DNA of 64,000 nucleotides. It comes from Candidatus Latescibacterota bacterium (GTDB taxonomy: Bacteria; Latescibacterota; UBA2968; UBA8231). The notes below the pieces were generated by a model. That model had not been told where the DNA came from and did not search any database. It saw only the letters and a program-made list of their open reading frames with translations. Below are positions 34,545 through 53,937 of this stretch, piece after piece. The stretch lies in the NCBI GenBank assembly GCA_965248355.1, contig OZ252098.1:1920001-1984000 (forward strand), read 5' to 3'. The translations under genes were made by a program, and so were the position numbers. Numbering within the stretch: position 1 is the stretch's first letter; every line of letters starts with the position of its first letter.

Positions 34545-34707
34545 TCACCCAGTTTTCTCGAAGTTTCGCCTGCTGAGCGCCTGACCCGACCGTAACTGAC
34601 TGTTTTCGCGTAACATCAAGGAGGTTCCGGAGACCACGCACTCGGGCATGCGAAACAAGATCGCTCATCATCACCCTTTCCATCCCCAATCCCGGAGAGA
34701 TAGTCCC

Positions 34708-36600
34708 ATGCATCTCAGACGTATAGGCATCGCGGGCTCGGCGACGCTCCTGCTGCTCGCAGGAACCGCGAGTGCCCAGTTCCTGCACGCCGGCAACCCC
34801 GACGTCACGTCCCTTTCGGACATGACCAGCGGAGGCCCGCCGACCGTGTTGAAGATCGAAGGTTTGTCGAGCTTCCCCGACTATGCCTTCGACGGCTCCG
34901 ACCTCGATGTCAACTTCACCCTCGAAGGCAGCGGAGCCACCGTCTGGCTCTTCGTCTATACCTCCGGCCAGAACCCGCCTCTGACCATCGAGGGAGAGGG
35001 TGATCCTCCTTACAAGGATCCCGTGCGCAACCAGCCCGGCTGGCACGTGTACGAAGGCGTCGACTACCTCGTCTACAAGTCCGCCGGCGAGCGCATGGAC
35101 GAGGGCGAGAACACCATTACCTGGAACGGCCGCGACAACGCCGGCAACGTCGTCTCCGCCGGCGCCTACAGCCTGCACCTGGCCGCCTTCGACGACGAGG
35201 CCTTCCCCCACCTCGTGGCCGGCTCCGTCTTCCGCAAGCTCGGGCCGCCCGGGCGCCCTTACTGGGATCTCGGCCGGGAGCAGATCTTCGACTTCCGCTT
35301 CGTCAACGACATGAACAACGACTGGGTCGAGAACTTCGAGGGCTTCGACACGATGGATCTGACCGCCGTCACCGACGCCGGCGGCAGCACGCCGAACTCG
35401 GCTGTGTTCCTCAATGACGACTTCACCGAGGCCCTCGCCATCGGCCAGAGCAACTTCCTCGAGCGCCTCACCCTCGACTGGGACGCCAACCGCGTCTCCA
35501 CCGTCGAGGACTGGGGCGAGGACTACGGCGGCGTCAACGGCGTCATCAACGTCGAGGACCTCGGCGCCAGCGCCGGCCAACGGATGATCGCCACCAATCC
35601 CGACAAGACCATCGCCTATCTCGCGGCGGGCGTGACCGGTACGGTGGCGCAGATCGCTTCCTACTCCATCGAGACCGGTGAGAAGCTTGCCAGCTGGGAC
35701 ATGACCGATCTCTTCCTCTACGACAACAAGGGGGCCGACCGGGTCAGCGCGCCCATGGAGTTTGCCCAGTTCTACGACGGCGCTCCGGATCCCTGGGGGA
35801 TCACCACGACATCTCACCACTCCTCCGTGATCGCGCGCTTCGACTACGACGGCAACCTCAAGTGGGCCAACCGCAACGGTGACGGCTTCGGCGATACCCA
35901 GGCCTACAACAGCGCCGACGGCACCTTCGGGGACCTGGTCTACGGACATACCGAGGCGCCCAACTTCAAGTACTCCCTGTTCTCGGCCCCGGACGGATGG
36001 GTCTCGGTCTGCGAGAACGGCCGCGACAACACCAGCTTCGGCGCCATGCTCGGTCAGGACGGTTCCGGCCTGTTCAAGTTCGAGCCCAAGAACACGCCCC
36101 TCACCTGGTCGCAGTACGTCTGCATCGTCGACGGGGACACCGAGTGGGACGGTCTGCACATGCAGATCGGCGGCTTCGGCGACGCGATCCCGTCCAACGA
36201 CTGGGTCTCGAACGACGTCACCGTCTCGCCGACCCATCCCCTCGCCCACTATCCGTACGACCAGAAGAAAGTAAGTCTGGGGATGCCCACGGCCGTTGCC
36301 GAGGTGGGAGGGCAGGTGCCCGGTGGCTACGAGGTCAGCGACGCCTACCCCAACCCCTTCAACCCGGAGACCACGGTTCGCTTCTCCCTGCCCTGGGAGG
36401 TGGATGTACGGGTCACGGTCTACAACGAGCAGGGCCAGAAGGTGGCCACCTTGGCCGATGAGCGCCTGGGTCCGGGCAACTTCGACATCACCTGGGACGG
36501 CACCGATGACAGTGGGGCCGCCGTCGCCTCCGGTGTTTATCTGTATCGGATCGAGGCCCCCGATCTGCGTCTGAACAAGAAGGTCACCTTCCTCAAGTAG
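34708..36600 (+). CDS. Secreted protein with N-terminal FlgD-Ig-like domain and C-terminal FlgD-Ig/T9SS-type CTD
   Basis: Signal peptide ...LLLLAGTASA; ITWNGRDNAGNVVSAGAY near the N-terminus; YPNPFNPET...WDGTDDSG...SGVYLYRI...KKVTFLK at the C-terminus. Confidence 0.8.
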   Translation: MHLRRIGIAGSATLLLLAGTASAQFLHAGNPDVTSLSDMTSGGPPTVLKIEGLSSFPDYAFDGSDLDVNFTLEGSGATVWLFVYTSGQNPPLTIEGEGDPPYKDPVRNQPGWHVYEGVDYLVYKSAGERMDEGENTITWNGRDNAGNVVSAGAYSLHLAAFDDEAFPHLVAGSVFRKLGPPGRPYWDLGREQIFDFRFVNDMNNDWVENFEGFDTMDLTAVTDAGGSTPNSAVFLNDDFTEALAIGQSNFLERLTLDWDANRVSTVEDWGEDYGGVNGVINVEDLGASAGQRMIATNPDKTIAYLAAGVTGTVAQIASYSIETGEKLASWDMTDLFLYDNKGADRVSAPMEFAQFYDGAPDPWGITTTSHHSSVIARFDYDGNLKWANRNGDGFGDTQAYNSADGTFGDLVYGHTEAPNFKYSLFSAPDGWVSVCENGRDNTSFGAMLGQDGSGLFKFEPKNTPLTWSQYVCIVDGDTEWDGLHMQIGGFGDAIPSNDWVSNDVTVSPTHPLAHYPYDQKKVSLGMPTAVAEVGGQVPGGYEVSDAYPNPFNPETTVRFSLPWEVDVRVTVYNEQGQKVATLADERLGPGNFDITWDGTDDSGAAVASGVYLYRIEAPDLRLNKKVTFLK

Positions 36601-36764: not shown

Positions 36765-38903
36765 GTGAAGATTGCCAGACACCCCGGCTGGGCGCGACCC
36801 CTGGCTGTCGCGGGACTCTTCCTGTGTTGTGGCGGTCTGTCCGCCCAGGACCTGTCCAGCGTCGGGATCTCCACCTGGCCCTCCACGACTCGCTATCTCG
36901 GCTTCCCCGAGTTCGCAGCCGGTCAGGACGGCCAGATCCGGATCACCGCCGGCGGGCCCTACACCCTCTACCTCAACGGCGATCTCGTGGGCAGTGACGC
37001 GGATCCCTCCACCGTGGAGATCTGGCCGGACCTCGCCTTCAAGAAGAAGGAGAACCAGGTAGCCGTGGTGGTCGACCACGACGGCACCCGGAGCCCGTAC
37101 GGCGCCTACCTCGTGATCGACGGCGAGGAAGAGCAGTTCATCAGCTCTCCCACGGACCGCTCCATGCCCTGGTTCTGGTCCGGCGACCCCCTGCCCAACA
37201 AGGAGGGCGGCTGGACCAAGCTGAAGCTGAGCAAGCTCGACGAGCACGAGGAGGACGGGCGGCTCATCACCTGGCAGGCGGCGCAGCAGGGAACCCTGGA
37301 ACCACGGGACTTCGTGGAGTTCGAGGACCTGGACCTGACCCGGGCCGGCAGCGTGGCCGGCTTCCCCGGAGGCCTGTCCGGTCAGGAGCAGGGGCTGCAG
37401 TTGCGCAGCCTGGTGGGCCAGAACATGGCCCTCAACTCCCGCACCTCCGACCCGAATCTCGTCGATGGCGACATCACCAAGGGCGTCGCCTTCCGCAAGG
37501 GCGCCGCATCCTTGGGCCAGGGGGTGGGCACCGACCTCGGCCGGCTCCTGCTCCTCGAGCGGGTGCGCGTCATCACCGAGCCGCCCGGCCGCAACGACAC
37601 CTACGAAGACCTCGCCATCAGGGGCTACAGCGTCCTGATCAGCCAGAACGGCATCAGCTACCGCGAGGCGGGGGCGCGCAATCAGATCAGCACCTACCGG
37701 GAGAGCGACGTCGTCTTCCCGCCGACTCCCGCCCGCCACGTGAGCCTGAGGATCACCGAGTTCTCCTCCCGGGACGCCAATCCAAGGATCGGGGAGCTGG
37801 AGGTCTTCGCCCAGGGGCGGGACGACGAGGGCCGATACCGCTCCCCGCCGCTGGATCTGAGCTCCTCCGAGGTCAAGAACTTCGAGCGCGCCATCCGCTA
37901 TGGAGAGGTTCCCGCCAACACGGAGATGGAGCTTCGCTTTCGTAGCGGCGAGGACGGGGAGAGCTGGAGCGAGTGGTCGTCCTGGGACTCGCAGTCCGAG
38001 GTCGGACTGACCGTGCCCGAGCCGCGGAACTATCTCCAGTTCGAGGCGCGCATGCTGAGCCGGATTCTCGACGCCACCCCTCGGCTCGACAGCCTGGTGG
38101 TCTGGTTCGAGGAAGGCCCCTTTCCGGCCTCTCGTGCTTCCGGCTCCATCTCTCCGGCTCGTGCCTCCATCGGCGTCGATACGCTGTTCACCTATACGCT
38201 GCAACTGGAGATGCAGGACACCGACACGGGTGTGGGACGGCTGGCCATCCTGACCTCCTGGCCGGCCCAACTCGATGTCGGCGCCGTGCAGGGTCTGGGA
38301 GAGGCGGCCATCGCCTCCAGCTACGCCACGGCCGACTCCCTCGTGCTGATCTTCGATCCGCCCATCACCTCGGCCACCGGAACGACGGAGGTGGTCATCC
38401 CCTTCACCACGCGGCTGCTCTCCGCCAGCCACGACTTCCAGGGGTTGCTCTTCGCTCCCGGGAGTGCGGCCTCCCTCCAGGTCGAGAGGCGGGAGGGAAC
38501 CGATCCACAGACCGAGCTCCCGTACACCTCCATCACCGAGGCGGCGGACTTCAGCATTCCCATCCTCGACCACGTGCGAGCCCAACCCGGGGTCTTCACC
38601 CCCAACGGAGACGGCGCCAACGACTTCGCGGTGCTGGCCTTCACCCTCGGGCGCGTCTCCGGGTCTTCGGTCCACTTCGAGATCTATGATGTCGGCGGAA
38701 GGTTGGTGCGCAGCCTGCCGCCGAGTCTTCTCGACCCCGGAAGCTACTCCCCCATCGGGGGCCGGGAAGAGGACCTGCCCGGACGATGGGACGGCCTGGA
38801 TGACGAGGGAAGGCTGGTGCCGCCGGGGCTCTACCTGTATCGAATCGTCGTCGATCTGGAACCGGACGAGGTGGCCACGGGCGTGGTCGGACTCGCCTAC
38901 TAG
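36765..38903 (+). CDS. Secreted discoidin (F5/8 type C)-like protein with gliding-motility-type/FlgD CTD
   Basis: NLVDGD...DLGR...ARHVSLRIT...IGELEVF; CTD FTPNGDGAND...IYDVGGRLVR...WDGLDDEG...PPGLYLYRI; GAGG RBS before GTG. Confidence 0.72.
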   Translation: MKIARHPGWARPLAVAGLFLCCGGLSAQDLSSVGISTWPSTTRYLGFPEFAAGQDGQIRITAGGPYTLYLNGDLVGSDADPSTVEIWPDLAFKKKENQVAVVVDHDGTRSPYGAYLVIDGEEEQFISSPTDRSMPWFWSGDPLPNKEGGWTKLKLSKLDEHEEDGRLITWQAAQQGTLEPRDFVEFEDLDLTRAGSVAGFPGGLSGQEQGLQLRSLVGQNMALNSRTSDPNLVDGDITKGVAFRKGAASLGQGVGTDLGRLLLLERVRVITEPPGRNDTYEDLAIRGYSVLISQNGISYREAGARNQISTYRESDVVFPPTPARHVSLRITEFSSRDANPRIGELEVFAQGRDDEGRYRSPPLDLSSSEVKNFERAIRYGEVPANTEMELRFRSGEDGESWSEWSSWDSQSEVGLTVPEPRNYLQFEARMLSRILDATPRLDSLVVWFEEGPFPASRASGSISPARASIGVDTLFTYTLQLEMQDTDTGVGRLAILTSWPAQLDVGAVQGLGEAAIASSYATADSLVLIFDPPITSATGTTEVVIPFTTRLLSASHDFQGLLFAPGSAASLQVERREGTDPQTELPYTSITEAADFSIPILDHVRAQPGVFTPNGDGANDFAVLAFTLGRVSGSSVHFEIYDVGGRLVRSLPPSLLDPGSYSPIGGREEDLPGRWDGLDDEGRLVPPGLYLYRIVVDLEPDEVATGVVGLAY

Positions 38904-38914: not shown

Positions 38915-41641
38915 ATGAGGAAGAGGGTCCCCCTAGACCAATCCATGCGCGCTCCCGTCGCTCTCACCCTCCTGGCCCTGTTGGGATCCACTCCGGACCT
39001 GGCGGAAGGGCAGTTCCTGTCCCGGGACTTCCGCGGGCTCTGGGCCAACCAGATCTTCGAGAACTACGGGGCCGCGGGCTACCGGGACTACGACCTGGAA
39101 GAGGAGAACCGGCGCTTCGACCTCTTCGGCGATCTCCTCATCGACGGCGTGGACATCATCGAGTACAGCGAGATCCGGCGGGACGCCCCCGGCATCCGGG
39201 GCAGCTTCGAGACACGCAACGCCCGCTACGAGCGCTTCTTCAGGAAGCTTGTCATCGCCAACGAGGGGTTCGGCAACTGGTCCACCCGCCTGATCATAGG
39301 GGATCACATCCGGACCTTCTTCACCCCCATGACGCTGAACCTGCCCAACTACAACGGGATCCGCTGGGACGGCGCCTCCCGGAAGAGCCGCTTCAGCCTC
39401 ATCGCCAGCCACCTGCGGGATCCGGTGGTGCTGGGCGGGGGCCTCGCCGTGGACCAGAACATCGAGGAGCGCCGGATCTGGGGGGGCAGCCTCTTCGGCG
39501 TTCATTGGGAGAGCCAGATCGGCGGCCTGCTCAAGCTCGGAACCACCTACGTCAACCTGCATCGCTTCGACTCCGAGGCCACTGCCAAGGTCAACAGCCT
39601 CAAAGGGACGATACCCGGGGTCATGCAGGGGGGGCTTCGCAAGGTCTTCGTGTTCTTCTCCGACGACTCCCCCCACGACGCCTTCGCCGGCGCCGCGGTT
39701 CACGAGTTGACCCTGACCGTGGACGGCACACCGGTGATGCCCTTGCGGGTGGGTCGGATCGACGGCCTCATCAGCAAAATCCCGGTCACGCCCGATCCGA
39801 CCAGCACCGTCCTGCTCGAGCCCCACGAGGTCGACTACCTCCGCCGCAACCGCTCCTGGCTGCGCGCCGTGGTCGAGGCCAGCCGGGACCGGTTCTTCGC
39901 CTCCCTGCTGGACGACATCACCACCGACATCACCGCCGAGGCCCTCACCTCCCGCGGCGCGCCCCTTCGCGCCGACGGGAGCGACGTCATCTACTTCGAG
40001 TACGAGGTCCCCGACACGGTGAGCGGTATCGACTTCAGCGCTGTCCTCGCCGACGACTACAGCGTGGACGTCGTGGGGGCCATGCTGGTGCCGATCCTGG
40101 CTCCGGGCGAGGACGACTTCTATTACGACTGGTACAACGCCCGCCGCGCCAGGGGACGGCCCGGCCACGGGTCGAACCGGCACCGGGTCGACTTCCACTA
40201 CGGGTTCCCCACCGGGCTGACCATCGCCGGGCTCGACTGGGACCTCAAGGCACTGGGGTTCCACCTCCAGGGGGAGTTCGCTCGCAGCCTGCGCTTCCTC
40301 CAGGTTCCCAACCGCAAGGCCAAGCGTCACCGCCGGGAGAGCTCGACCTTCTACTTCCGCCTCACCCGCCCCGTGCGCGAGCGGACCGAGCTCGGTTTCG
40401 AGTACTTCGACGTGCCCGACGACTACACCACCGAGTTCCCCCTCTTCCTGACCCAGCGCACCACGAAATCGGTCGGCGGCAGGCTCTACACGCCCTTCGC
40501 CCTCGTGGAGGACAACGACGATCTCGACTTCTGGCCGGACCGGGTGGAGCACAACGATCCGCTGGCGCCGTACGCGGACCCCCTGGGCAGTCAGTTCGGC
40601 CATCCCGGAAAGGGGGTCTACCCCGGCCTGGATCCGGACGACGACGGGGTCTTGGACTACAACCTGGACCTCGAGTTCGGCTCCGATTCCAGCCAGCCCT
40701 TCCTCGGCTACTACTCGGAGCCGTCCGGCCTGGTCTACGGCGACGACTTCGACAACAACGGGGTCGTCGACTACCGCGAGAACGACAACCTGCCGGACTA
40801 TGCCTATCCCCTCGACCACCGCGGCTTCCACGCCTTCGGTACCGTGGGGTTGAGCGCCCGGACCCAGATGCGGGCGGGGTGGTACAGGGTACGCCAGCCG
40901 GTCGTGGGAGGCCGCAACAACACCCAGTACGTCGAGGGGCAGTACCGACGGGACTGGGCGGGCCTGGGGTACCTGCGGTTGAACCACCGTATCAAGTGGA
41001 TGGAGGACGACATCCGCAACACGGTCTTCCGGTTCGGCAGCGTCGGCTCGCTCAATCCGGACCGCCTGGGGAGCCGGGACACGGTCAGCAACTTCACCTT
41101 CTTCGAGACCGGCCTGATGGCCGTGCCCGACGTCAACCTCCGCAACATCATCACCTTCGGCTTCTCGGAGCTGGCCGGGCGTCCCGTGGCCGATCCCTTC
41201 CTGACCATGCCGGGCCGATACACCGGTATCTCGGTGATGAACAAGATCGACTACACTTGGAGGCGCGGCCGGCTGACCGTTCTGCCCCAGTTCAAGCACA
41301 TCTACTACCGCAGCACCTCACCGGAGCGCCACCTGCCCTCTTCGCAGAGCCGCCAGGTCATACCGATTCTGCGCGCCGACTACCAGTTGACCCCCAGGAC
41401 CGAGCTCAGGACCGGCATCCAGGGGTTCCCCTTCTGGCGCGAGAAGACCACCTACGCGGTCCGGCCCGAGAGCCAGTACACGCGCCTGACCTACACGGCG
41501 ATGATCCAGAACCGGAGCAACTACCTGGGCTACGACTTGGTGCTGCTCATGGGCACGTACCGCAGCGAGGTTGACTACTCCGGATCCGACCGGCCGGGCA
41601 ACGGTTTCCTGCAGTATTTCTTCAGGATCTTCATCGGCTGA
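38915..41641 (+). CDS. Large exported protein, putative outer-membrane beta-barrel (paralog 1 of 3); alternative start 38945
   Basis: Signal peptide; amphipathic strands; Asp-rich loop; ends FFRIFIG; shares motifs with the next two genes. Confidence 0.65.
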   Translation: MRKRVPLDQSMRAPVALTLLALLGSTPDLAEGQFLSRDFRGLWANQIFENYGAAGYRDYDLEEENRRFDLFGDLLIDGVDIIEYSEIRRDAPGIRGSFETRNARYERFFRKLVIANEGFGNWSTRLIIGDHIRTFFTPMTLNLPNYNGIRWDGASRKSRFSLIASHLRDPVVLGGGLAVDQNIEERRIWGGSLFGVHWESQIGGLLKLGTTYVNLHRFDSEATAKVNSLKGTIPGVMQGGLRKVFVFFSDDSPHDAFAGAAVHELTLTVDGTPVMPLRVGRIDGLISKIPVTPDPTSTVLLEPHEVDYLRRNRSWLRAVVEASRDRFFASLLDDITTDITAEALTSRGAPLRADGSDVIYFEYEVPDTVSGIDFSAVLADDYSVDVVGAMLVPILAPGEDDFYYDWYNARRARGRPGHGSNRHRVDFHYGFPTGLTIAGLDWDLKALGFHLQGEFARSLRFLQVPNRKAKRHRRESSTFYFRLTRPVRERTELGFEYFDVPDDYTTEFPLFLTQRTTKSVGGRLYTPFALVEDNDDLDFWPDRVEHNDPLAPYADPLGSQFGHPGKGVYPGLDPDDDGVLDYNLDLEFGSDSSQPFLGYYSEPSGLVYGDDFDNNGVVDYRENDNLPDYAYPLDHRGFHAFGTVGLSARTQMRAGWYRVRQPVVGGRNNTQYVEGQYRRDWAGLGYLRLNHRIKWMEDDIRNTVFRFGSVGSLNPDRLGSRDTVSNFTFFETGLMAVPDVNLRNIITFGFSELAGRPVADPFLTMPGRYTGISVMNKIDYTWRRGRLTVLPQFKHIYYRSTSPERHLPSSQSRQVIPILRADYQLTPRTELRTGIQGFPFWREKTTYAVRPESQYTRLTYTAMIQNRSNYLGYDLVLLMGTYRSEVDYSGSDRPGNGFLQYFFRIFIG

Positions 41642-41642
41642 C

Positions 41643-44456
41643 ATGGCGCGCCTTCGATATACGGCGGCGGTGGCCGCGGCCTGCTGGCTCATGACCGGGG
41701 GGGCCTCCCCCGGCGAGGCCCAGCTGCTGTTCAAGCCCGGAGAGCCGTACGCCAACTACGCCTACGAGGGCTACCGGAGCTACCAGAACCTGATCTTCGC
41801 CCGTGACCGCCTGCCCGTGTTCGATCCCCTCGGCCAGTTCGTGATGAACGGCACCGAGGTCTTCAAGCTCCAGGAGACCCGGACGCTCGCCCCTGCGCCG
41901 GGCACCCTCATCTCCAAGCCGAGGCTCTACCAGAACTACCTGAACCGCTTGGTGATCGCGGACGACGCCTACGCCGGGGCCACGAGCAAGCTCATCATCG
42001 GCGACCACCTGCGCACCAAGTTCACCTCCCTGACCCTCGACATGGCGGCCATGAACGGACTGCGCTTCGACACCCGCTTCGAGAGCGGCTCCCTGATCCT
42101 GGCCGCCTCCCGGGTGGACCGGCCGATCTTCGAGGCCCTGGGGCAGCAGAACGTCGACCACCGGGTCCACGGCGTGGAGGAACGCTACGAGACGCGGCCC
42201 CGCTGGTCGACCTACCTGCTCGGCGGCGACCTGCGCACCCAGTTGCCGGGGCTGGACATGGGTTTGAGCTGGGTCAACCAGTACCGCACCGACAGCTTCA
42301 AGGAGCTCAACGACAACAGCTTCAAGGGCACCCTCCCGACCACCGGCGCCCCTCCCGAGTGGATCGTGGTGCGCGTCGCCGACCAGGAGCCCGACGACGA
42401 GGTGGGAGTGCGCGTCAAGGTGCCCACCATCACTCTCAACGGCCGCCGGTTGCAGCACCGTCTCGGACCCTATGACAACCTGGACCCGGATGCCCCGACG
42501 CTCACGGTCACCGAGCATTCCGACCGTACCATCATTCCGCCGATCCTCTGGAGGGACGCCCAGGATCCCATCATCGATCACGACCACGTGGCACCCACAC
42601 CCCAGGGTTTCTACGAGACCCGGGGTCCGGGGAGCCTGCTGTTCTGGTTCCGCGTCCCCCACACCTTCGATGGCGCCGGCGAGACCGAGGTGATCAACCA
42701 GGCCTACGTGGACCTGGACGTGGCCGGGGACTACGTGATCGAGTTGTCGGAGATCTTCGACGGCATCTCCAACAACCCGGCGACCTATTTCTACACGGCC
42801 GCCCGGTCGGCGGGCCGACCGGGCAACCTGAGCGACTTCCGGCGCGTACGGGCCCACTACGGCCGCCAGACCGGCCGCACCCTGGCGAGCGCGCATCTGA
42901 ACCTGGACGTCAAGGGGTTCATGCTGCACACGGAGTACGTGCGCAACTTCTCCTTCCGCGCCTATCCGGCCCTCCTGAGCACCGAGCTCGAGCACTTCCA
43001 GGACGAGAGCCAGGCCTGGTTCGCCGTGCTCCGCCGGAATTGGGAGGACTTCTCCGTCGGTGGCGAGCTGTTCGACGTGGACGCGGCCTATTCCACCGTT
43101 CTCGCGGTGCAGGACGACGCCTTCAACACCAGCGCCGGCTTCCCTTCCGCGCCCTTCAACTACCCCCAGCAGATCCACGAGCCGCGGCTGCCGACCAAGA
43201 TCGGCCGGAACATCACCGACCAGACCTACACGCGCGAGTTCGACACCGTCGACGACAACGACGACAAGGACCAGTACCCGGACACCTACTACCTGCGCAA
43301 GACCACGAATCCGGAGACCGGGGGGCGCTTCATCCAGGATCCGGACGGCGTCTTCCCGGGGCTGGACGCCGATCTGAACGGCCGGCCGGACATCAACGAG
43401 AACAGCAACCTGATCCCCGACTACTACGAGCCCTTCCTGCTCTACAAGGTCAATCCGGACGCCTACGAGTGGGGTGAGGACCTCAACAACAACGGCCAGA
43501 TCGACGAGCGCGAGAACGACCTGAAGTCCGACTACCCCTACGATGTCGACCGCCGCGGGTTCCACGGCTTTTCCCGGCTCTTCCACGGCAGGGCGACCTG
43601 GACCGTGGGACATCACAGGTCCTGGGCGCCCTTCGGAGGCGGCAGGGCGGAGGCGACCTACGCCAAGATCGAGTACGAGCGCCGGATCCCCTTTCTCGTG
43701 GATGTCTACGGCGTGGAGCGGCTCAAGCGCGTGCATGACGACATGGCCGACGACATATTCGGCCTGCGGCGAGACCCCATCTACTTCGAGCCGGACGTGA
43801 TCTCCATCGTGCCGCTCACCGAGGAGCAGATCTTCAATCCCCTGGGCGAGGCCGAGCTGCTCAAGGACCCGCTGCAGATGCGCGACAGCTGGGTCAACAC
43901 TCTCTACACGAGGACGCGCTACATCGGCACGTCCAACCTCAATGTCGAGGTCTCGGTCAAGTATGAAACCAACCTCCAGCAGAGTACACCCCTGCAGCCC
44001 GACAACCGCGTCTCCGACCTGGCCACGGTGGTCAAGGCCGACTACACGTGGAATCCCTGGAGCCGCCTCCGTGTCGTTCCCCAGTTCAAGTGGATGCGGC
44101 AGCGCCTGCAGGACGACGAGCAACGGCTCCTGGAGATCGCCGAGGACTACGTCTACCCGATTCTGAGGTTGGAGTACCCCCTCTCCTCCCGCACCGAGGT
44201 CAAGCTCGGGGCCCAGGGCTTTCCCTTCCTCCAGGGCACGTACCGCAACGGAGCGGCCCGGGGGGTGGATTTCGATTCCCAGGTCTACCTGGCGCTGCTG
44301 AGCAATACCTCCACCTACGTGGGCTACCAGATCAACGTCAACCTGGGTTACGAGAAGCGCATCCGGACCTTCCTGGACGAGACCCGCAGCGATCAGGACA
44401 TCGATTTCTCCCGCCTCTTCCTGCGCGTGATCGTCGGCCTGAGGCCGCAATTCTGA
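41643..44456 (+). CDS. Large exported protein, putative outer-membrane beta-barrel (paralog 2 of 3)
   Basis: Signal peptide; LIIGDHLRTKFTSLTL; GVFPGLDADLNG; ends LFLRVIVGLRPQF. Confidence 0.65.
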   Translation: MARLRYTAAVAAACWLMTGGASPGEAQLLFKPGEPYANYAYEGYRSYQNLIFARDRLPVFDPLGQFVMNGTEVFKLQETRTLAPAPGTLISKPRLYQNYLNRLVIADDAYAGATSKLIIGDHLRTKFTSLTLDMAAMNGLRFDTRFESGSLILAASRVDRPIFEALGQQNVDHRVHGVEERYETRPRWSTYLLGGDLRTQLPGLDMGLSWVNQYRTDSFKELNDNSFKGTLPTTGAPPEWIVVRVADQEPDDEVGVRVKVPTITLNGRRLQHRLGPYDNLDPDAPTLTVTEHSDRTIIPPILWRDAQDPIIDHDHVAPTPQGFYETRGPGSLLFWFRVPHTFDGAGETEVINQAYVDLDVAGDYVIELSEIFDGISNNPATYFYTAARSAGRPGNLSDFRRVRAHYGRQTGRTLASAHLNLDVKGFMLHTEYVRNFSFRAYPALLSTELEHFQDESQAWFAVLRRNWEDFSVGGELFDVDAAYSTVLAVQDDAFNTSAGFPSAPFNYPQQIHEPRLPTKIGRNITDQTYTREFDTVDDNDDKDQYPDTYYLRKTTNPETGGRFIQDPDGVFPGLDADLNGRPDINENSNLIPDYYEPFLLYKVNPDAYEWGEDLNNNGQIDERENDLKSDYPYDVDRRGFHGFSRLFHGRATWTVGHHRSWAPFGGGRAEATYAKIEYERRIPFLVDVYGVERLKRVHDDMADDIFGLRRDPIYFEPDVISIVPLTEEQIFNPLGEAELLKDPLQMRDSWVNTLYTRTRYIGTSNLNVEVSVKYETNLQQSTPLQPDNRVSDLATVVKADYTWNPWSRLRVVPQFKWMRQRLQDDEQRLLEIAEDYVYPILRLEYPLSSRTEVKLGAQGFPFLQGTYRNGAARGVDFDSQVYLALLSNTSTYVGYQINVNLGYEKRIRTFLDETRSDQDIDFSRLFLRVIVGLRPQF

Positions 44457-44460
44457 CCCC

Positions 44461-47400
44461 ATGAGAGCCGGAATCACAAAGAGCGCCGACCGCCGGAGAG
44501 CGGGCCTCCAGGGTAGCCGGCATCACTCCGCCCTGAGCAGCCTGTGGTCGTGGCCTCTCTTCGGCGTGCTGCTGCTGCTCGCGCCGGCCACCGCCGATGA
44601 GGAGAAGGAGGACCGGCCCGAGCACCCGGCCCTGGGACCGGTGCGCCTGATCCCGGATCAGCCCTTCATCGGCCGCATCGGGCGGCAGACCTACCAGAAC
44701 TACGGGTTCGAGGACTACTCCCGGCGTCCCGTGGCCACGAGCAACCTGAGCAACCGCTACAACTATCTGGGCGACCCTCTGGTCTACGGCACCCAGTCGA
44801 TCCGCTGGGTCGAGTCACGAGGTCTGGGCACCTCCCGCGGCTACAGCTCGGTCAGCGAAGGCGGAGCCCACGGCACCGGCCGGGGCGGCACCGACTACGC
44901 GCCGCCCGGCGGCAGCTTCGCCAATCTCTTCAACTACGTCATGGTCGGCTCCGACGGCACCGATACCTGGCAGGCCCGGGCGATCTACGCCAACGAGCTG
45001 CGCTCGAAGTTCACGCCCCTGACCTTCAAGATGTCCAACGTCGACGGATTGCGCCTCGACGTGGGCACCGAGCACGACAGGTTCTCCGCCCTGTTCTCCA
45101 ATCTGACGCCCACGGGCGGCGGCTTCATCGTGCCCACCACCATGCTCGGCGCCCACTACGAGCGCCGGGTGGGCTTCCTCAACTTCGGCGCCAGCTTCGT
45201 CAACGCTCATCAGTACGAGCACCAGATGTCGAACCGCCACCAGTCCTTCAAGGGATCGGTGGGCAACATCCAGCGTCCGACAGCGATGGTGGCCATCCGC
45301 ATCTCCGACGGCTCGCCTCAGGACGGCAGGGACGGGCCGGTGCTCCACGGCGTGAAGGTCTACATCAACGGGGAGCTGCGTCCGGAGGCGGATCCCTTCC
45401 TGATCCGTCTCAATCGACGCGGCGACGCCCGGACCACCTACGTGGCCGGCCTGCTCGACGAAGGCAAGGACAACGAACGCCGCAGGCCCCTGGAGACCGA
45501 CTACCAGACCGTCAACAAGGGGGCGGTCTTCAACAGTTTCGCCGTGTACATCAACTACGCCGCCTTCGACACCGACGCCTACTACAGGGGCTACGACTTC
45601 CCCTTCTTCATCGACCATCTCTACTACCGGGACTTCGCCCGCTTCGGCCCGGACCACGAGTACGAGGAGGGCGTCACCGTCCACAACCAGTTCGCCCACG
45701 AGCTCTCCGAGCCCGACGGCGCCTTCGCCCTGGCCACGGAGGCCGACCTGCCCCAGGCCTTCGACGGCGAGGAATACGCCGTGGTCTACGTCGATCTGGA
45801 GCCCTTCCAGGAGCAGATCAACTCGGTCGACATCGACTTGGAGCTGTCCAGGGACTACCACGTGGAGGTCTCGGAGATCGATCTGGCCGGCAAGCCCCAT
45901 GACCCGCGCGCGGTGAATCCGCGGGACCGCTACAACTACGCGGGTTTCTTCCGCACCGTGGCCTCGGCGCCCGGCAACTCGCGCAGCGACAACATCGAGA
46001 GGGTGCGCGTGAAGGTGGGCGCCTCCACCGGACTGAGCCTCTACAGCGCCAACGTCTACGGGGTGTTCAAGGGCTTCGAGATCGACGGGGAGTTCAGCCG
46101 CAGCCACAGCTACTACCAGTACGCGAGCGGCATCCCCGGACCCCGGGTATATCCTACCGGCGGCGGGCAGACGGTGAACGCCCTGCTCCGGGAGGAGAAC
46201 CCGGGTGCGCGCTCCAGCATCGACGACGATGCCTATTACCTGACGGTCAAGCGCGACTTCCGGAGCTTCGGCGTGGGCGCGGAAGTCTTCTCCATGGGAG
46301 CCCACTTCAACACCGAGCTGCGCTCCCACATCGGACGTAGCGAGGTCAACTTCGGCAACCCGGTGGTCTACAACAACACCTACCTGCACCGGCTGGTGGA
46401 GGACAACGACGACAACGACCGCTACCCGGACACGTGGTACACCAACCGCCCCTTCATCTGGAACGGGCAGTCGGACCTCGACGGCGTCTTCCCGGGCCTG
46501 GACGAGGACAACGACGGCGTGCCGGACACCAACCGGGACTTCGACGCCACGCCCGACTATCTCGAGCCCTTCCTGACCTACGACGTGGATCCGCAGATCT
46601 TCGACTACGGTCTCGATCTCAACCACAACGACTACATCGACGAGCGCGAGAACGACCTGCAGCCGGACCTGCCCTACGACCCGGGCCTGCGGGGACGCCA
46701 CGTCTACGGGACCTTCAAGCCGATCCGGGGCGCACGGATGACCCTGGGGCTGCTTGACGCCGAGCAGATCGCCGCCGGCGATCCGAACGAGTTCCTCTAC
46801 GCCCGCCTTGGTTACGAGCGCCGGATCCCCAGCCTGGGGCGGTTCCAGGGCTCCCTGTTCACCGAGCGAGTGAGGGACGGCGTCGAGGATCCGCTGAGCG
46901 TGTACAGCGATGAGGTCCTGACAGCGGCCGAGCAGCTCCGGCGGGAGTTCGGCGGGTTTCAGCGCAACATCCGCATCTCCCCCTTCCTGGAGGTGCCGCG
47001 GGAGGATCCCCTGCTGTTCAAGAACAGCACCTTCAGCCGCATCTTCGTCGACGCCCGCTGGACGACCCTGCCCGGCCTCAACATCCACAACAAGGTCAAG
47101 TACGAGATCAACCAGCAGCTCGACGGCGAGCTCTACGACGGCACCCTCCAGGAGGGCCGGACCCTGTCGCGGTGGGCCATGGTGCACCGGCTGGACTACC
47201 TGTGGCCCATCCAGCCCAAGCTCAGCCTGTTCTCCGGGCTCAAGTACCGCTTTCTGCGGGAGTGGCAGACGGGGGATGTGACCACCCAGCACGAGCGGCA
47301 CATCATCCCCATCCTCAAGCTCAACTACGACCTGACCCTGAGGACCCGCCTCCAGTTCGGTGTGGAAGGCCTGGGCACCCTCCTGCCCTACTCGGTCGTC

Positions 47401-47616
47401 GATCTGGCGCAGCCGGAGAACGACTTCGAGCAGTACGACTACGTGCTCATGCTGACGAACAACTCCAAGTACTTCGGCTACATCCTCTCCACCAATGCCG
47501 GCCTCAGCCGCAGGCACAGGGTCTTCGACGACCCGGCCGTGGCGCAGGTCAAGGACGAGAAATTCACGGCGGTCTTCATCAACGTGATCCTCGGCTTCGA
47601 GGAGGAGACCTACTAG
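44461..47616 (+). CDS. Large exported protein, putative outer-membrane beta-barrel (paralog 3 of 3)
   Basis: Signal peptide; LRSKFTPLTF; GVFPGLDEDNDG; ends FINVILGFEEETY. Confidence 0.65.
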   Translation: MRAGITKSADRRRAGLQGSRHHSALSSLWSWPLFGVLLLLAPATADEEKEDRPEHPALGPVRLIPDQPFIGRIGRQTYQNYGFEDYSRRPVATSNLSNRYNYLGDPLVYGTQSIRWVESRGLGTSRGYSSVSEGGAHGTGRGGTDYAPPGGSFANLFNYVMVGSDGTDTWQARAIYANELRSKFTPLTFKMSNVDGLRLDVGTEHDRFSALFSNLTPTGGGFIVPTTMLGAHYERRVGFLNFGASFVNAHQYEHQMSNRHQSFKGSVGNIQRPTAMVAIRISDGSPQDGRDGPVLHGVKVYINGELRPEADPFLIRLNRRGDARTTYVAGLLDEGKDNERRRPLETDYQTVNKGAVFNSFAVYINYAAFDTDAYYRGYDFPFFIDHLYYRDFARFGPDHEYEEGVTVHNQFAHELSEPDGAFALATEADLPQAFDGEEYAVVYVDLEPFQEQINSVDIDLELSRDYHVEVSEIDLAGKPHDPRAVNPRDRYNYAGFFRTVASAPGNSRSDNIERVRVKVGASTGLSLYSANVYGVFKGFEIDGEFSRSHSYYQYASGIPGPRVYPTGGGQTVNALLREENPGARSSIDDDAYYLTVKRDFRSFGVGAEVFSMGAHFNTELRSHIGRSEVNFGNPVVYNNTYLHRLVEDNDDNDRYPDTWYTNRPFIWNGQSDLDGVFPGLDEDNDGVPDTNRDFDATPDYLEPFLTYDVDPQIFDYGLDLNHNDYIDERENDLQPDLPYDPGLRGRHVYGTFKPIRGARMTLGLLDAEQIAAGDPNEFLYARLGYERRIPSLGRFQGSLFTERVRDGVEDPLSVYSDEVLTAAEQLRREFGGFQRNIRISPFLEVPREDPLLFKNSTFSRIFVDARWTTLPGLNIHNKVKYEINQQLDGELYDGTLQEGRTLSRWAMVHRLDYLWPIQPKLSLFSGLKYRFLREWQTGDVTTQHERHIIPILKLNYDLTLRTRLQFGVEGLGTLLPYSVVDLAQPENDFEQYDYVLMLTNNSKYFGYILSTNAGLSRRHRVFDDPAVAQVKDEKFTAVFINVILGFEEETY

Positions 47617-47618: not shown

Positions 47619-50600
47619 ATGGGCTTGACCCTGTTCCTCACCGTGCTGGCCGCCACGGGCACCTATCTGGCGACGCGCACGCCCACCGAAGGCGAGCTGG
47701 TCAGCTCCTTTCAGGAGGCCCAGCGGTTCTACGCCGAGGGCGCCTACGACCAGGCCATCTCCGAGTACGCGAATGTCTCCCGCGTGCGGAGCCGGGTGCT
47801 GGCGGTCAACCAGGTCCAGGTGGTCGTGGGCGAGGAGAGCTTTCCCCTCCAGGAAGCCGCCGCCTATCAGATCGGGAACGCCTATTCGAAGCTCTACGAG
47901 GAGTACGACCGGTTCGCGGAGGAATCGAGGAACGCCCTTCGAAGGAGCGAGTACCGGGCGCAGGCGGACACCTCCTTCGCCCGGGCCATCGGCGCCTTCC
48001 GCCAGGTCATCGCCTCCGCCGCCAACGAGATCCTGAAGGTCCAGGCCCACGGTCGCCTCATCGACCTCTATTTCTCGGCCGAGGCCTACCCGGACGTCAT
48101 CATCGCCTCTCGCGAGATGATCGCCGCCTATCCGGACAACCCTCACGTCGTCGTCGCCTACTACAACACCGGATGGGCCTACTACGAGACCAGGAGATTC
48201 GCCCGCGCCATCGAGTCCTTCCAGGCCCTGTTGTCCCGGTTCTCCACGGGCTACCGCGCCGACCGCAGCTTGTTCCAGATCGGCGAGTGCCACCGGGAAC
48301 GGGGGGAGTACGAGGAGGCCATCGAGTCCTACCGCCGGCTCGTGGAACGCCAGCGCATCGGCGAGCTGACGGACGAAGAGCTGCTGCAGATGAAGCGGGA
48401 GAAACTGGCGGGGCTCGTGGACGAGACGGCCCTGGAGCTGGCGGCCAAGGCGGAGATCCGGGTTGGTACCTGCTTCACCAGCCTGGGGCGTTTCGACGAG
48501 GGTCTCGCGGCCTACCAGCGGGTGATCTCCCTCTTCAGCACCGAGCGCCAGCTGGTGGAGGAAGCCTTCCTGCGCCTGGCGGACCTCCACCAGGCCCGGG
48601 GAGACGAGGCCGCGGCCCTGCGCACCTACCGCGAGGCGATCGACGAATCGCAGGACCGCACCCTCAGGGCGAGGATTCAGTACGCCCTGGCCGAGAGGCT
48701 GTTCTCCCAGGGCGCCTACGAGCGGGCGATCCAGGAGTACCGGATCTACCTGCAGGGCTATGGCGACATCGCCCTGAGCGCCGGCTTCAGCGAAGGGCGG
48801 GTACGCTACCGTGTGGGCAGCGGCTACCAGCAGCTGGCCCAGCCCCACCTGCAGGCGGGGGACGGCATCGCCGCGGCCTCCTGGCTGAACCTCGCCATCG
48901 CCCAGTACGACACCCTGTGCGCCGATCCGAACTCCCCCTACTTCCTGGACTCCCAGTTCAACCGCGCCGTCGCCTTCCAGTCCCTGGGCACCCCGGGGGC
49001 CATGGCCCGGGCCCGCGGCGAGTACGAGACCATCATCGATGGGGCGGGGGACGAGCTCTACCTCCAGAGATCCCTGGGCCAGCTCGCGGAGCTGCTCTAT
49101 GACCTCGGTGAATACGAGGGGGCGGTGGAGCGCAGCCGACAGTTGCTGAGGGAGTTCCCCGGGACCGACTACGCCGACGAGGCGTACATGCGCATCGGCC
49201 TGGGCCACCAGGCCTCGGGTGAACTGGAGCCGGCGGCCGAGGCCTTCCTCCAGGTCGCCCCGGACTCCCCCTTCTTCGTCCGCTCCCGGACGGGCGCCGG
49301 CCACGTGCTGCTCTCCGAGCGGCGCTACGCCGACGCCATCCCCGTCCTGCAGGCAGGACTCGCGGAGGCCGAGGCCCCGGCCCAGCAGGGCAGCCTGCAC
49401 TACCTGCTCGGACAGGCCTACAACGGCGAGGGGGAGTACGCGCAAGCCGTCGTCCAGTTCACCGAGGCCCTGGCCCGGCCCATGGGGCCCCGCCTGGTGG
49501 AGGCCCTCCGTCTCAATCGCGGCAGCGCGGCCCTGGCCGCCGGGGATCTCGCCCAGGGAGAGGAGGACCTGCTGTGGGTGGTGTCGAACGTGACCGATCC
49601 CGAAAGGGTGCGCTACGCCCAGGACGCCCTCGCCTTCTCCTACGTAAGGCGGGACCGGGGAGCTGACGCGGCCCGGATCCTCGAGGAAATGGTGATCGCC
49701 GCCCCCACGGTCGAGCAACGCGCCGACCTGCTCAATCGCATGCTGGATCTCTACTACGAGGAGGAGAGCTACTCCCAGACCATCGAGGCCGCCCGCCGCC
49801 TCCTCGCCCTGGACTTCGACGACAAAGCCGTCTCACGGGGAGGGTACGGCACCAAGGAGAAGGCCTACTTCATCCTTGGCGACGCCCTGATGCGGCTCGA
49901 CCGGGGCTCGGAGGCGGTGCGCACCTTCCGCGAGGCCCTCCGGGCCTATCCGGGCTCCCCCTTCGCCCTGGACATCCGGCTGACTCTGGGCGCCTTCCAC
50001 TTCGCCGAGGGAGAGCTGGACCAGGCCAGGAGCCTCTTCCAGGACCTCTCCGGCGTCGACCTGACCGAGGAGCAGGCCCTTCTCGTCTCCTTCTACCTGG
50101 CCAACACCCATTACAGCCTGAGGGAGTTCGAGGAGGCCCGCATCCTCTTCCAGGGACTCCTCGACGAGAATCCGGGTGTCCGGGAACTGCCGGACATCCT
50201 CTTCGGGGTCGCGGAGAGCAACTATCAGCTCGGCGCCTTCGACCGGGCCATCGGCCACTACCGGCGGCTCATCGAGGAGTTCCCCGGGGAGACGGCGGCC
50301 GACGACTCGCAGTACAACATGGCCTGGTGCCTGATCGAGCTGGAAAGACAAGAGGAGGCCATGGCCGCCTTCCGCCAGCTTCTCGACCGCTATCCCCGGA
50401 GCGAGTACGCCGCCTCCGCCCAGTTCACCTTCGGAGATCACGCCTACAACCTGGGCCGCTACCAGGATGCCATGGAGGCTTACCTGCTCGTTCAGCAACG
50501 GTACCCCGACGCGGAGATCACGGCGGAGGTGCCGAGGCTCGTGGCCGAGCTCAAGGAGGCCATCGCCTACGAGCGCTACGAGCAGGGCATCGCCCTGATG

Positions 50601-50867
50601 GACTCGGCCGAGGCTGTCGGGCCGAGCGATTACTACCGCCAGGCGATCGAGGTGTTCGAGGACGTCATCGCCAAGTACCCGGAGACGGAGAGCGAGATCG
50701 GAGCCCTGAGCAACATGGGCGTCTGCCTGGAGGAACTGGGCAGGTGGCAGGACGCCGTCGGGGTTTACGACCGCGTCATCGGCCTTTTCGAAGAGAAGCG
50801 AGCCACCCGGGAGGCCTTCCAGTTCGCCAAGGCCCACCGGGACTGGATTGTGAGCGCCCGGCTGTGA
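47619..50867 (+). CDS. Large multi-TPR protein (BamD/YbgF-like repeats), exported
   Basis: N-terminal hydrophobic segment; many TPRs such as AYYNTGWAYYE...AIESFQALL and SQYNMAWCLIE...FRQLLDRYPRS. Confidence 0.88.
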   Translation: MGLTLFLTVLAATGTYLATRTPTEGELVSSFQEAQRFYAEGAYDQAISEYANVSRVRSRVLAVNQVQVVVGEESFPLQEAAAYQIGNAYSKLYEEYDRFAEESRNALRRSEYRAQADTSFARAIGAFRQVIASAANEILKVQAHGRLIDLYFSAEAYPDVIIASREMIAAYPDNPHVVVAYYNTGWAYYETRRFARAIESFQALLSRFSTGYRADRSLFQIGECHRERGEYEEAIESYRRLVERQRIGELTDEELLQMKREKLAGLVDETALELAAKAEIRVGTCFTSLGRFDEGLAAYQRVISLFSTERQLVEEAFLRLADLHQARGDEAAALRTYREAIDESQDRTLRARIQYALAERLFSQGAYERAIQEYRIYLQGYGDIALSAGFSEGRVRYRVGSGYQQLAQPHLQAGDGIAAASWLNLAIAQYDTLCADPNSPYFLDSQFNRAVAFQSLGTPGAMARARGEYETIIDGAGDELYLQRSLGQLAELLYDLGEYEGAVERSRQLLREFPGTDYADEAYMRIGLGHQASGELEPAAEAFLQVAPDSPFFVRSRTGAGHVLLSERRYADAIPVLQAGLAEAEAPAQQGSLHYLLGQAYNGEGEYAQAVVQFTEALARPMGPRLVEALRLNRGSAALAAGDLAQGEEDLLWVVSNVTDPERVRYAQDALAFSYVRRDRGADAARILEEMVIAAPTVEQRADLLNRMLDLYYEEESYSQTIEAARRLLALDFDDKAVSRGGYGTKEKAYFILGDALMRLDRGSEAVRTFREALRAYPGSPFALDIRLTLGAFHFAEGELDQARSLFQDLSGVDLTEEQALLVSFYLANTHYSLREFEEARILFQGLLDENPGVRELPDILFGVAESNYQLGAFDRAIGHYRRLIEEFPGETAADDSQYNMAWCLIELERQEEAMAAFRQLLDRYPRSEYAASAQFTFGDHAYNLGRYQDAMEAYLLVQQRYPDAEITAEVPRLVAELKEAIAYERYEQGIALMDSAEAVGPSDYYRQAIEVFEDVIAKYPETESEIGALSNMGVCLEELGRWQDAVGVYDRVIGLFEEKRATREAFQFAKAHRDWIVSARL

Positions 50868-50891: not shown

Positions 50892-51452
50892 ATGGTTTCG
50901 ATAGATTACCGTTATCTCTTTCTCCTGGCCCTCACCGGGACGCTGCTGACCGCAGGCGGCCCGGGATTGGCTCAGGAGCCGGAGGAGAGGTTCCAGGTAC
51001 GCGAGCAATCCGCCTCCAGGAAGCAGGCCGTGGCCCTCGCCGTGGCCTTTCCCGGACTCGGTCACCTGGCCACCGGACACCGGGAAAAGGGGACCGCCCT
51101 CGTGACCGCCGAGATACTCGGCCTCGTGATATGGCTGACGTCGCACGCCGACTACAAGACCCAGTCCGAGCAGGTCGACGTGGAGAAGATCCGCTACGCG
51201 TCGATTCGAGAGGGCGGAACCCACGATGAGGCGGAGGAGAGCTGGCGGCGTCTGAACAGCCTGAGGGAGGATGCCGACGGCTCGCACCTGCGGCGGCGCC
51301 TCTTCGGGGTCCTCGCCATCGGCGTGTACGGGTACAATCTCCTCGATGCCCTGCTCCTGGGGGGGCTGGAGCCGCCCGGCGGCGGACGCGTCGGTCTGGT
51401 GCCCTCGGCGACTCCGGACCAAGCGGGGCTGGCCCTTGTGGCCCGCTTCTGA
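50892..51452 (+). CDS. Membrane/exported protein, DUF5683-like
   Basis: AVALAVAFPGLGHLATG motif, GYNLLDA, terminal ...LALVARF. Confidence 0.6.
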   Translation: MVSIDYRYLFLLALTGTLLTAGGPGLAQEPEERFQVREQSASRKQAVALAVAFPGLGHLATGHREKGTALVTAEILGLVIWLTSHADYKTQSEQVDVEKIRYASIREGGTHDEAEESWRRLNSLREDADGSHLRRRLFGVLAIGVYGYNLLDALLLGGLEPPGGGRVGLVPSATPDQAGLALVARF

Positions 51453-51477: not shown

Positions 51478-51864
51478 ATGGTGAGAAGAGCGGGTTTGAG
51501 CGTCGTCCTGGCCGGGGTGGTTCTCGTCTGGTCATGCAGCGACGACATCGAGCTGCCCACGGCCTATCACGAAGGATACCTGTCGCAACCCTCGGAAGTG
51601 ACCTCCGCCGTGGAGGACGGCGCCATCAATGTCTCCTGGAGCATGGCCTCCGAGGCCGACGTCGAGGGGTTCGTCGTCGGTTTCACGGACTCCAGCGGAG
51701 CCGAGCACACGAGGTCCATCGAGGATCCGGCGGCGAGACTTCACTCGGAGCAGGAGTTGGGCGTCGGCCCGGGCACCGTCTACTTGATCCAGGTGTGGGC
51801 CTTCGATGCGAAGGGGTACTTCGGCCCCCGGTCGGAGGTCGACACCCTGGCGGTCCAGGAGTGA
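51478..51864 (+). CDS. Lipoprotein with fibronectin type III-like domain
   Basis: Lipobox LVWSC; PSEVT...INVSWS...GTVYLIQVWAFDAKG..GPRS. Confidence 0.7.
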   Translation: MVRRAGLSVVLAGVVLVWSCSDDIELPTAYHEGYLSQPSEVTSAVEDGAINVSWSMASEADVEGFVVGFTDSSGAEHTRSIEDPAARLHSEQELGVGPGTVYLIQVWAFDAKGYFGPRSEVDTLAVQE

Positions 51865-53146: not shown

Positions 53147-53160
53147 GAGAGAGGGTGGCC

Positions 53161-53937
53161 ATGCGTTCAGTCATTCCATCGCTGCTGATCCTCAGTGGCT
53201 GCAGCCATTTTCAACCGGAGGCGATCCTCTACTCGAACGAGCTGGTCCCCAGTTCCTACCAGGCCAGCGAGGATCGGTACACCGTCGACGAGGACGGTGC
53301 CGTCACCTACGTTCTGGAGGGACTCCGCGTCCGGGTGGAGCCCATGGAGGACGACGAGCTCAGCGCGATCTTCCCCGAGGAGTCGACGCGCGGCCAGTTC
53401 TCCACCAATCCCTATACATACGGAGACTGGATCGATCCGCTTGTCGGGCACACGCCCAAGCGCTTTACCGTCTTCCGCGTCACGATCATCAACGACATCT
53501 ACGCCAAGGTGCTGCTCGATCCGATCAAGGCCATGCTGTACACCGATCAGGGAGAGGTTCTTCATGCCTACGGTCTGCCCTCGGTCTCTCCCCACAACAG
53601 CTTCGAGCGCTACTACCGGGCCATCCGGGGACAGAGCGGCAACGAGTTCTACCGCTTCGACCTGCGCATGGGGAACGTGCGCAGCACGGCCTATCTCGAG
53701 GATGTGAGGGTGTTCAAGGGCGAGAGCTACTCCGGCCTGCTCGCCTTCGACCCCCTGAACGAAGAGGTGGGGCAGGTCAGACTGACGCTGAGGGACTTCG
53801 TGACCAAGTTCGACGCTTCCGGTCAGCCCATGGAGACGGTGGACATCTCCATGGAGTTCGACCAGGAGATCGAGAGAAGAGTAGCGCCGCGAACAGCGGC
53901 GAGGCAGGTACCGCCGAGCGGTGACCAGGCTCCCTAG
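53161..53937 (+). CDS. Hypothetical lipoprotein
   Basis: Lipobox LILSGC; NPYTYG, FTVFRVTIIN, GESYSGLLAFDPL. Confidence 0.72.
   Translation: MRSVIPSLLILSGCSHFQPEAILYSNELVPSSYQASEDRYTVDEDGAVTYVLEGLRVRVEPMEDDELSAIFPEESTRGQFSTNPYTYGDWIDPLVGHTPKRFTVFRVTIINDIYAKVLLDPIKAMLYTDQGEVLHAYGLPSVSPHNSFERYYRAIRGQSGNEFYRFDLRMGNVRSTAYLEDVRVFKGESYSGLLAFDPLNEEVGQVRLTLRDFVTKFDASGQPMETVDISMEFDQEIERRVAPRTAARQVPPSGDQAP

Follow-up and report, generated by a model that had tools for sequence, protein, structure and literature searches.

A 64,000-nucleotide stretch of a Candidatus Latescibacterota bacterium genome (assembly GCA_965248355.1, contig OZ252098.1, positions 1,920,001 to 1,984,000; here called the window) carries three adjacent genes, A, B, and C, which we report as true paralogs of an uncatalogued family of large proteins. 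The family is predicted, from a structural model of B, to be a plug-less outer-membrane beta-barrel of about 24 strands. Tentatively, and at somewhat less than even odds, we read A, B, and C as pore subunits of a Ton-like import machine that runs on proton power and whose other parts their operon also encodes, with lectin-like lids delivered by a type IX secretion system (T9SS).

Sequence relationships

Pairwise BLASTP between A, B, and C gave 24 to 31% identity (E values, 7e-87 to 2e-37). The proteins align end to end, with local alignment scores of 535 to 764 against at most 71 for shuffled sequences (100 shuffles each), which bears out the first-pass annotation, in which they had been called tandem paralogs; each shared motif quoted there occurs once per protein, at colinear positions. 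Artefactual or frameshifted open reading frames (ORFs) were ruled out by intact orthologs in many genomes, and a recent tandem duplication was ruled out by comparison with proteins at the same position elsewhere (55 to 60% alike versus 24 to 31% between A, B, and C). Paralog A has a signal peptide to about residue 32. The final strand had been described as ending near an aromatic residue, which holds for few copies; A ends in Gly, and Phe or Tyr is the last residue in only 3 of the 25 full-length copies of this genome, so the canonical terminal Phe is absent.

Pfam and NCBIfam scans of the three proteins found no family match (one chance TRADD_N hit, E = 0.06), and PDB sequence searches with three alignments found none for the family. 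With the profile comparisons below likewise matching no characterized family, the earlier description of the family as unassigned stands. The only Atlas entries returned were Latescibacterota clusters without a name (0.98) and DUF6029 (0.89), below the lead threshold. No description of the barrel family or the operon was found in a full-text literature search that covered few subscription papers.

Predicted structure

AlphaFold2 was run on B (83 sequences), and the fold of A and C is predicted through their homology to B. In the model (predicted local distance difference test [pLDDT], 82.4; predicted template-modelling score, 0.83), about 24 long strands can be counted from the secondary structure, the first starting at residue 67 and the last ending at 934, and there is neither a plug nor a POTRA domain. 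The stretch ahead of strand 1 is only some 40 residues long and includes a conserved aromatic motif. Alternate strand links are at most 5 residues long (predicted periplasmic turns); by the strand parity read from secondary structure, both inserts would then face outward. Alignments of the model to closed barrels span the first to the last strand, from which we infer closure of B. Our own covariation analysis (about 390 rows) was noisy, with neighbouring-strand pairs somewhat enriched, and is not counted as evidence.

The top fold matches were all outer-membrane barrels. SlpA came first in Foldseek (E = 9e-10; template-modelling score, 0.27) and in a second-look comparison (Z, 14.9; root mean square deviation [rmsd], 8.2; 413 residues aligned); in a wide fold search SlpA (Z, 13.1) was tied with LamB and other porins (13.0 to 13.2), with PorV at 8.7. 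On this model B appears to be a generic outer-membrane barrel belonging to no solved family. The model and its matches support the first-pass prediction of an outer-membrane barrel with large inserted domains, and the added proposal that it is BAM-type is not supported: BamA scored below the porins (Z of 10.2 to 10.8 against about 13), and where BamA/Omp85 proteins have 16 strands plus POTRA domains, the model of B has about 24 strands and no POTRA domain, and A, B, and C have no family match.

Four other barrel classes were rejected. A 24-strand fimbrial usher was considered (FimD: Z, 11.8; rmsd, 5.8; 301 residues aligned); there was no family match, and scans of the neighbours found no pilin or chaperone genes nearby. 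The SprA/Sov translocon is about 2,000 to 2,400 residues long, against 900 to 1,050 here, and no TIGR04189 match was found (NCBIfam). For the PorV and PorP/SprF shuttle families, whose barrels have about 300 residues and 14 strands, A, B, and C had no match to PF19572, PF11751, or NF033709. TonB-dependent transporters have a plug of about 150 residues, absent here, and no PF00593 or PF07715 match was found. Comparisons of the family profile (hhalign) with this genome's SprA, its PorV, and one of its TonB-dependent receptors gave probabilities of 0.1%, 0.6%, and 0.6%, respectively.

The first-pass annotation gave each protein one variable central insert. The variable insert is there, and it is not single: a beta-sandwich is followed by an Asp-rich block. 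Insert 1 varies between paralogs and lies on the outer side by strand parity; modelled alone it reached a pLDDT of 89.9, and its best fold matches were weak (Z of only 5.3), to pilin- or adhesin-type immunoglobulin (Ig) folds, with nothing from Foldseek at an E value of ≤0.001 and nothing from Pfam on 97 copies. Insert 2 carries DxDxNG/DxNxNG motifs and, with its invariant columns, ranks with the best-conserved regions of these proteins; a PDB search with it gave no significant match. It likely binds calcium.

Family distribution and phylogeny

In the genome, a single contig of 5.5 Mb that is 95.7% complete, 28 gene pieces match the family and make up 25 full-length genes and two broken ones. 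Five A-B-C triplets occur among these 27 genes, so the trio first noticed in the window is real and is not unique. In a tree of the 25 genome copies, A, B, and C each form a single clade (support, 99, 100, and 99), with nine further copies in a separate clade. The three clades persist in a FastTree tree of 215 nonredundant rows from many genomes (38, 54, and 45 rows; support, 99 to 100), beside further clades labelled D and S. Positions A, B, and C are therefore three ancient clades across genomes; the phylogeny proposed in the first-pass annotation returned three orthologous positional clades in both trees.

The family is carried by 94 of 151 sampled genomes of the phylum, including 63/63 of the bacterium's own family and 0/30 and 0/19 of two related families. 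At 50% identity, 996 clusters match it, and nearly all named homologs are Latescibacterota bins. Each of five near-complete genomes contains 18 to 41 matches.

Several loci show copies in unusual states. In this genome (G000), one broken copy (L013, 2469301-2473318) is split by a 423-aa ORF, which may be a mobile element, and the other lies in L007 (359546-362274). Paralog C has a solitary extra copy of very recent origin (L003:2500-5295) on the opposite strand, just upstream of the triplet at 155 kb, and in other genomes up to four C copies occur in one locus (L058).

Operon context

The barrel genes belong to an operon (Table 1) with the order type-A-tailed protein, tailed lectin-like protein, A, B, C, tetratricopeptide repeat (TPR) protein, two small proteins, DUF4159 protein, lipoprotein, 307-aa protein, ExbB, ExbD, and ExbD. 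This order recurs in other genomes and in metagenomes, in genomes of 34 to 69% GC. The initial account of the locus caught the barrels and missed the tailed surface protein, the TPR giant, the DUF4159 arm, and the ExbB/ExbD/ExbD context.

Table 1. Positions in the window of the barrel genes, the two inserts of B, and associated genes
Feature	Position	Strand	Description
DUF6785/DUF6784 multi-pass membrane protein	29552..31501	-	Pfam E 1e-131
Secreted protein with T9SS type-A-like tail	34648..36600	+	FlgD_ig E 2e-19; TIGR04183 over cut-off
Secreted tailed protein with F5/8 type C (lectin-like) domain	36765..38903	+	712 aa; weak Pfam CHU_C, F5_F8_type_C, FlgD_ig
Barrel paralog A	38915..41641	+	908 aa from ATG 38915, 898 aa from ATG 38945
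Barrel paralog B	41643..44456	+	937 aa
Insert 1 of B	42315..42863	+	Ig-like beta-sandwich, residues ~226-408, between strands 7 and 8
Insert 2 of B	43080..43550	+	Asp/Asn-rich loop domain, residues ~481-637, between strands 11 and 12
Barrel paralog C	44461..47616	+	Up to 1051 aa, exact start uncertain; insert 1 longest here
TPR protein	47619..50867	+	1082 aa; N-terminal hydrophobic anchor; candidate periplasmic scaffold
DUF5683-like small protein	50892..51452	+	Pfam E 2e-4, below cut-off
Small lipoprotein-like protein	51496..51864	+	Weak fn3 match, E 0.003
DUF4159 protein	51914..53146	+	Pfam E 4e-30; one membrane helix plus Pro/Lys/Arg-rich linker, TonB/TolA-like layout
Conserved lipoprotein	53155..53937	+	No named family; homolog elsewhere in genome with weak TonB_C match
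Secreted protein	53921..54844	+	307 aa; no family match
ExbB/TolQ-type motor subunit	54922..55665	+	Pfam E 2e-28
ExbD/TolR-type motor subunit 1	55681..56094	+	Pfam E 1.5e-27; membrane Asp present
ExbD/TolR-type motor subunit 2	56098..56508	+	NCBIfam tolR E 5e-16; membrane Asp present

Five close copies of the type-A-tailed protein are encoded in the genome, one at each triplet locus and never more than 2.5 kb from a barrel gene, and all seven genome copies of the TPR giant lie within 6.5 kb of a barrel gene. Motor genes are linked in the same way, with six of the genome's seven ExbB genes (Pfam) within 20 kb of a barrel gene, compared with 8.6% of all genes; the seventh adjoins the only TonB_C gene over cut-off. 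For DUF6785, 8 of 27 copies lie within that distance; neither DUF6785 nor DUF6784 was named in the literature searched. DUF4159 proteins have one membrane helix followed by a linker of 12% Pro and 21% Lys/Arg, and of 41 such proteins 28 have a His in the region of the helix and 11 show the SxxxH pattern. TonB and TolA contact their motor through an SxxxH/His helix motif (PMC12204202).

Contigs from RNA libraries (relatives about 95% alike; two runs of one study) cover 30/30 bins of 34600-54500 and bridge gene borders; they were not used, because contigs cannot show transcription. The contig over 34648-36600, from a close relative, had about ten times the depth of the barrel contigs, a lead only, since contig depth cannot rank genes.

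Proposed energized import

In the reading that we prefer, the lectin-like tailed protein would be exported by the single SprA and dock on a barrel as a lid, as SusD does on SusC. The Asp-rich insert would bind calcium and, with the Ig-like insert, cap the pore. ExbB/ExbD would power two partners, the DUF4159 protein with its membrane anchor and the TPR scaffold, and these may pull the barrel's short conserved aromatic N-terminal segment, its sole sizeable periplasm-facing part. Imported solutes, probably glycan fragments, would be handed to DUF6785-type membrane proteins. The barrel model, the ExbB linkage, the TonB-like layout of DUF4159, the F5/8 type C neighbours, and the high copy number speak for import, and on them we put its chances at a little under one-half. 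We also count in its favour that Latescibacteria are predicted polysaccharide degraders (PMC4454575).

Several points weigh against import. Energizing of the barrels by ExbB/ExbD is read from gene linkage, and most family genes are in loci without a motor, so these must borrow one or work without one. The DUF4159 copy in the window lacks the helix His that binds the motor in TonB and TolA. With no plug domain, gating is a guess, and the N-terminal segment on which the proposed pull would act is, like strand 2, a low-confidence part of the model (pLDDT of <50; residues 41-56 and 78-106 low). Ordinary TonB-dependent transporters are already in the genome (22 matches), and DUF6785 is a putative inner-membrane transporter on the strength of its many membrane helices.

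A fixed gene order and three old clades argue for non-redundant roles, and the three proteins likely have distinct places in one complex, in line with the possible hetero-oligomeric pore of the first-pass annotation. Such a complex is plausible, and an obligate A-B-C heterotrimer is not supported, since singles and pairs are commoner than triples: the five near-complete genomes have 111 tandem runs, of which 88 consist of one gene, 17 of two, 5 of three, and 1 of four. Some loci have C out of place or in more than one copy, and A-B without an adjacent C is common. The most elaborate version, a hetero-oligomer of three plug-less 24-strand barrels that is opened by ExbB and two ExbD subunits via DUF4159 and TPR, carries T9SS lectin lids, and has one barrel replacing a PorV-like shuttle, we consider doubtful.

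Known Ton-driven import uses one plug-bearing barrel family. A second, unrelated barrel family on most ExbB motors of a genome, in tens of copies per genome and across much of an uncultured phylum, would be a new outer-membrane route and a main part of feeding or protein display. If the elaborate version were true, the hetero-oligomeric machine would play the part of SusC/SusD throughout the phylum with components of unrelated origin. The operon is a defined protein set for structure prediction and expression work.

Tailed proteins and the T9SS

The import reading and the next explanation are not mutually exclusive. In the latter, the barrels would belong to a dedicated T9SS branch, either as an outsized substitute for PorP/SprF that shuttles or anchors its own tailed proteins or as a second translocon, and ExbB/ExbD would replace the missing GldL/GldM motor; we regard this as unlikely on balance. 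The family-linked tail of the lectin-like protein (about 38541-38900) is of a type between T9SS type A, type B, and FlgD-Ig. A distinct C-terminal tail of this kind occurs in 29 proteins of the genome, 27 of them encoded within 10 kb of a barrel gene (type-A-like tails, 8/94; all genes, 4.3%), and a tailed gene directly precedes 13 of 16 barrel runs. Many tailed neighbours carry an F5/8 type C domain. Among 54 tails, 41 weakly matched TIGR04131 (E ≤ 0.01), 49 the PorU model, and 45 FlgD, which makes the tail intermediate between type B, PorU, and FlgD tails; the window tail scores 20.5 bits against TIGR04131 (cut-off, 35 bits), and some other tails reach the Pfam CHU_C cut-off. In Flavobacterium, type B cargo needs a cognate PorP/SprF gene directly downstream of it (PMC12618676), an arrangement that the placement of the barrels mimics.

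Co-occurrence points the same way. In 48 genomes picked by barrel status, strong tail matches (E ≤ 2e-28) were found in 27 of the 28 genomes with barrels and in none of the 20 without (best E values there, 2e-13 to 2e-16). SprA was matched in 47/48, including all 20 negatives; these 20 belong to just two related families and do not represent many independent events. This genome has a single SprA, a PorU-like gene, and PorV, and had no match to PorP/SprF, GldM, or GldN at 95.7% completeness, an absence with weak controls (PorP over cut-off in 0/14 control genomes; GldN nowhere). The family also bears on T9SS outside Bacteroidota, SprA and PorV being present here and GldM and GldN not found. A further genome, G015 (L104, L105; 96% complete, 60 contigs), has a tailed gene, a PorV-like gene, three barrels, TPR, ExbB, and no SprA match, an absence that the fragmented assembly does not show.

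A divergent PorV/PorQ-like barrel gene occurs at 16 loci (for example, L084:2360-3325, L106:7578-8801, and L144:349-1323). All 16 proteins matched NF033709 below cut-off (E values, 5e-8 to 1e-21), nine of them also weakly matching TIGR03519. Among 165 nonredundant barrel genes of other genomes, 74 follow another barrel; the remaining 91 follow a tailed gene (40), a PorV-like gene (16), other tracked genes (17), or none of these (18). The PorV-like genes themselves follow a tailed gene (11) or lie at a locus edge (5), and in 11/11 loci with room the PorV-like barrel stands between the tailed gene and the big barrel. In 42 nonredundant operons, each followed from its tailed or PorV-like gene as far as the TPR gene, the arrangement was tail-A-B-C in 18, a PorV-like gene without C in 18, neither in 6, and both in none. 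This hints that paralog C may replace the PorV-like shuttle, with the reservation that the exclusion may reflect lineage history; it suggests a big barrel, in at least one case, able to do a shuttle's work, which favours the T9SS explanation and tells against import.

Other observations run counter to a T9SS branch. A real PorV/PorQ-like gene in the shuttle position at those 16 loci frees the big barrel for another job, the barrel family has no homology to SprA or PorV, and a barrel of 900 residues with two large outer domains far exceeds the needs of a 14-strand shuttle. The 3.1-Mb genome G003 has about 15 barrels, most without a tailed neighbour (L093-L103); among the eight of its loci listed, seven have barrels and no tailed gene, six have DUF4159 genes, and several have DUF6785 genes, which argues that the barrel does more than hold the tail. 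Many barrels of G003 are paired with near-identical DUF4159 genes, three of them in tandem in L098.

Porin and motility alternatives

We consider it improbable that the barrels are distant relatives of SlpA/OmpM, serving as passive porins for specific substrates or as structural components of the envelope, with the neighbours forming a separate machine. SlpA headed two of the fold comparisons, and 5 of 11 homologs weakly matched SlpA_C along some 100 residues, none reaching the cut-off (best E, 3e-6); SlpA is a trimer and likewise carries inserts that bind metal (PMC9388160). Against this, SlpA tied with LamB and other porins in the wide search, the template-modelling score was low as given above, and the S-layer homology (SLH) domain and coiled coil are absent by Pfam scan and in the model. 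The fixed operon with TPR and motor genes, in genomes so varied in GC content, speaks for one machine.

The Myxococcus Agl-Glt system has a TolQ/TolR/TolR motor, TPR proteins, and several outer-membrane barrels with a surface protein; the Glt barrels are small. A comparable surface-motility or adhesion machine, with a multi-barrel platform holding an adhesin and TPR linkers to the motor, would fit one ExbB and two ExbD genes, the TPR giant, three barrels, and the surface protein in outline, and TPR-tolQ-tolR-tolR operons with a membrane-tethered vWA transducer are known and proposed as possibly motility-related (PMC12204202). We judge it quite improbable: with six motor sets and 18 to 41 barrels in a genome, a range of substrates is a better fit than one engine, no Glt family match above cut-off was found for the operon proteins, and many loci lack motor genes.

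Relation to known systems

With Ton and SusC-SusD systems the operon shares an ExbB/ExbD motor, a single-helix linker, and many paralogous barrels, each with a surface binding neighbour. It differs in having no TonB_C arm, no plug, no receptor sequence match, about 24 rather than 22 strands, a candidate lid with a T9SS-like tail in place of a lipid anchor, and an extra TPR giant and second ExbD. The SprB-SprF type B T9SS (PMC12618676) has in common with it an FTPNGDG-type tail motif, a barrel downstream of the cargo, and SprA, PorU-like, and PorV genes, whereas the barrels here are three times longer and unrelated to PorP/PorV, the tails do not reach the cut-off for type B, searches for GldM and GldN gave no match, and some loci have a separate PorV-like gene.

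Deinococcus SlpA/OmpM (PF21620; PDB 8ae1) is likewise a large plug-less barrel with acidic metal-binding inserts (calcium binding is predicted here) and is the top or tied structural match; it has 28 to 30 strands against about 24 and an SLH domain or coiled-coil stalk lacking here, and the present family has many paralogs and a motor-linked operon. Agl-Glt is a single machine in contrast to the many paralogous loci here, with no Glt family match. The TPR-tolQ-tolR-tolR operons have a TPR gene, one tolQ-like and two tolR-like genes, and a single-helix transducer with a conserved His, as here; the transducer here ends in DUF4159 rather than vWA, and no dedicated barrel family or tailed cargo is named in the part of PMC12204202 consulted.

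Additional observations

Upstream in the window (26673-29561) is an FG-GAP/ASPIC-UnbV and TPR protein whose family recurs around many barrel loci. At its far end (60188-64000), a polysaccharide flippase-like gene is followed by O-antigen ligase/polymerase-like and glycosyltransferase-like genes, unrelated to the barrels.

A secreted family of about 300 aa lies near barrel loci (L007:242-1177; G000 231579, 352738, 2168875, 2804831, 4403301, and 5410458). Its members end in E-x-x-[ST]-W-G-x-[IV]-K, which may be a third sorting signal, with one weak CBM9 match. S-clade barrels are accompanied by a SurA-like, two-domain peptidylprolyl isomerase of lipoprotein type (L007:10033-11646, L012:2575-4200, and L016:355-1749); each of the six copies has a barrel gene no more than 5 kb away, which suggests a private folding helper.

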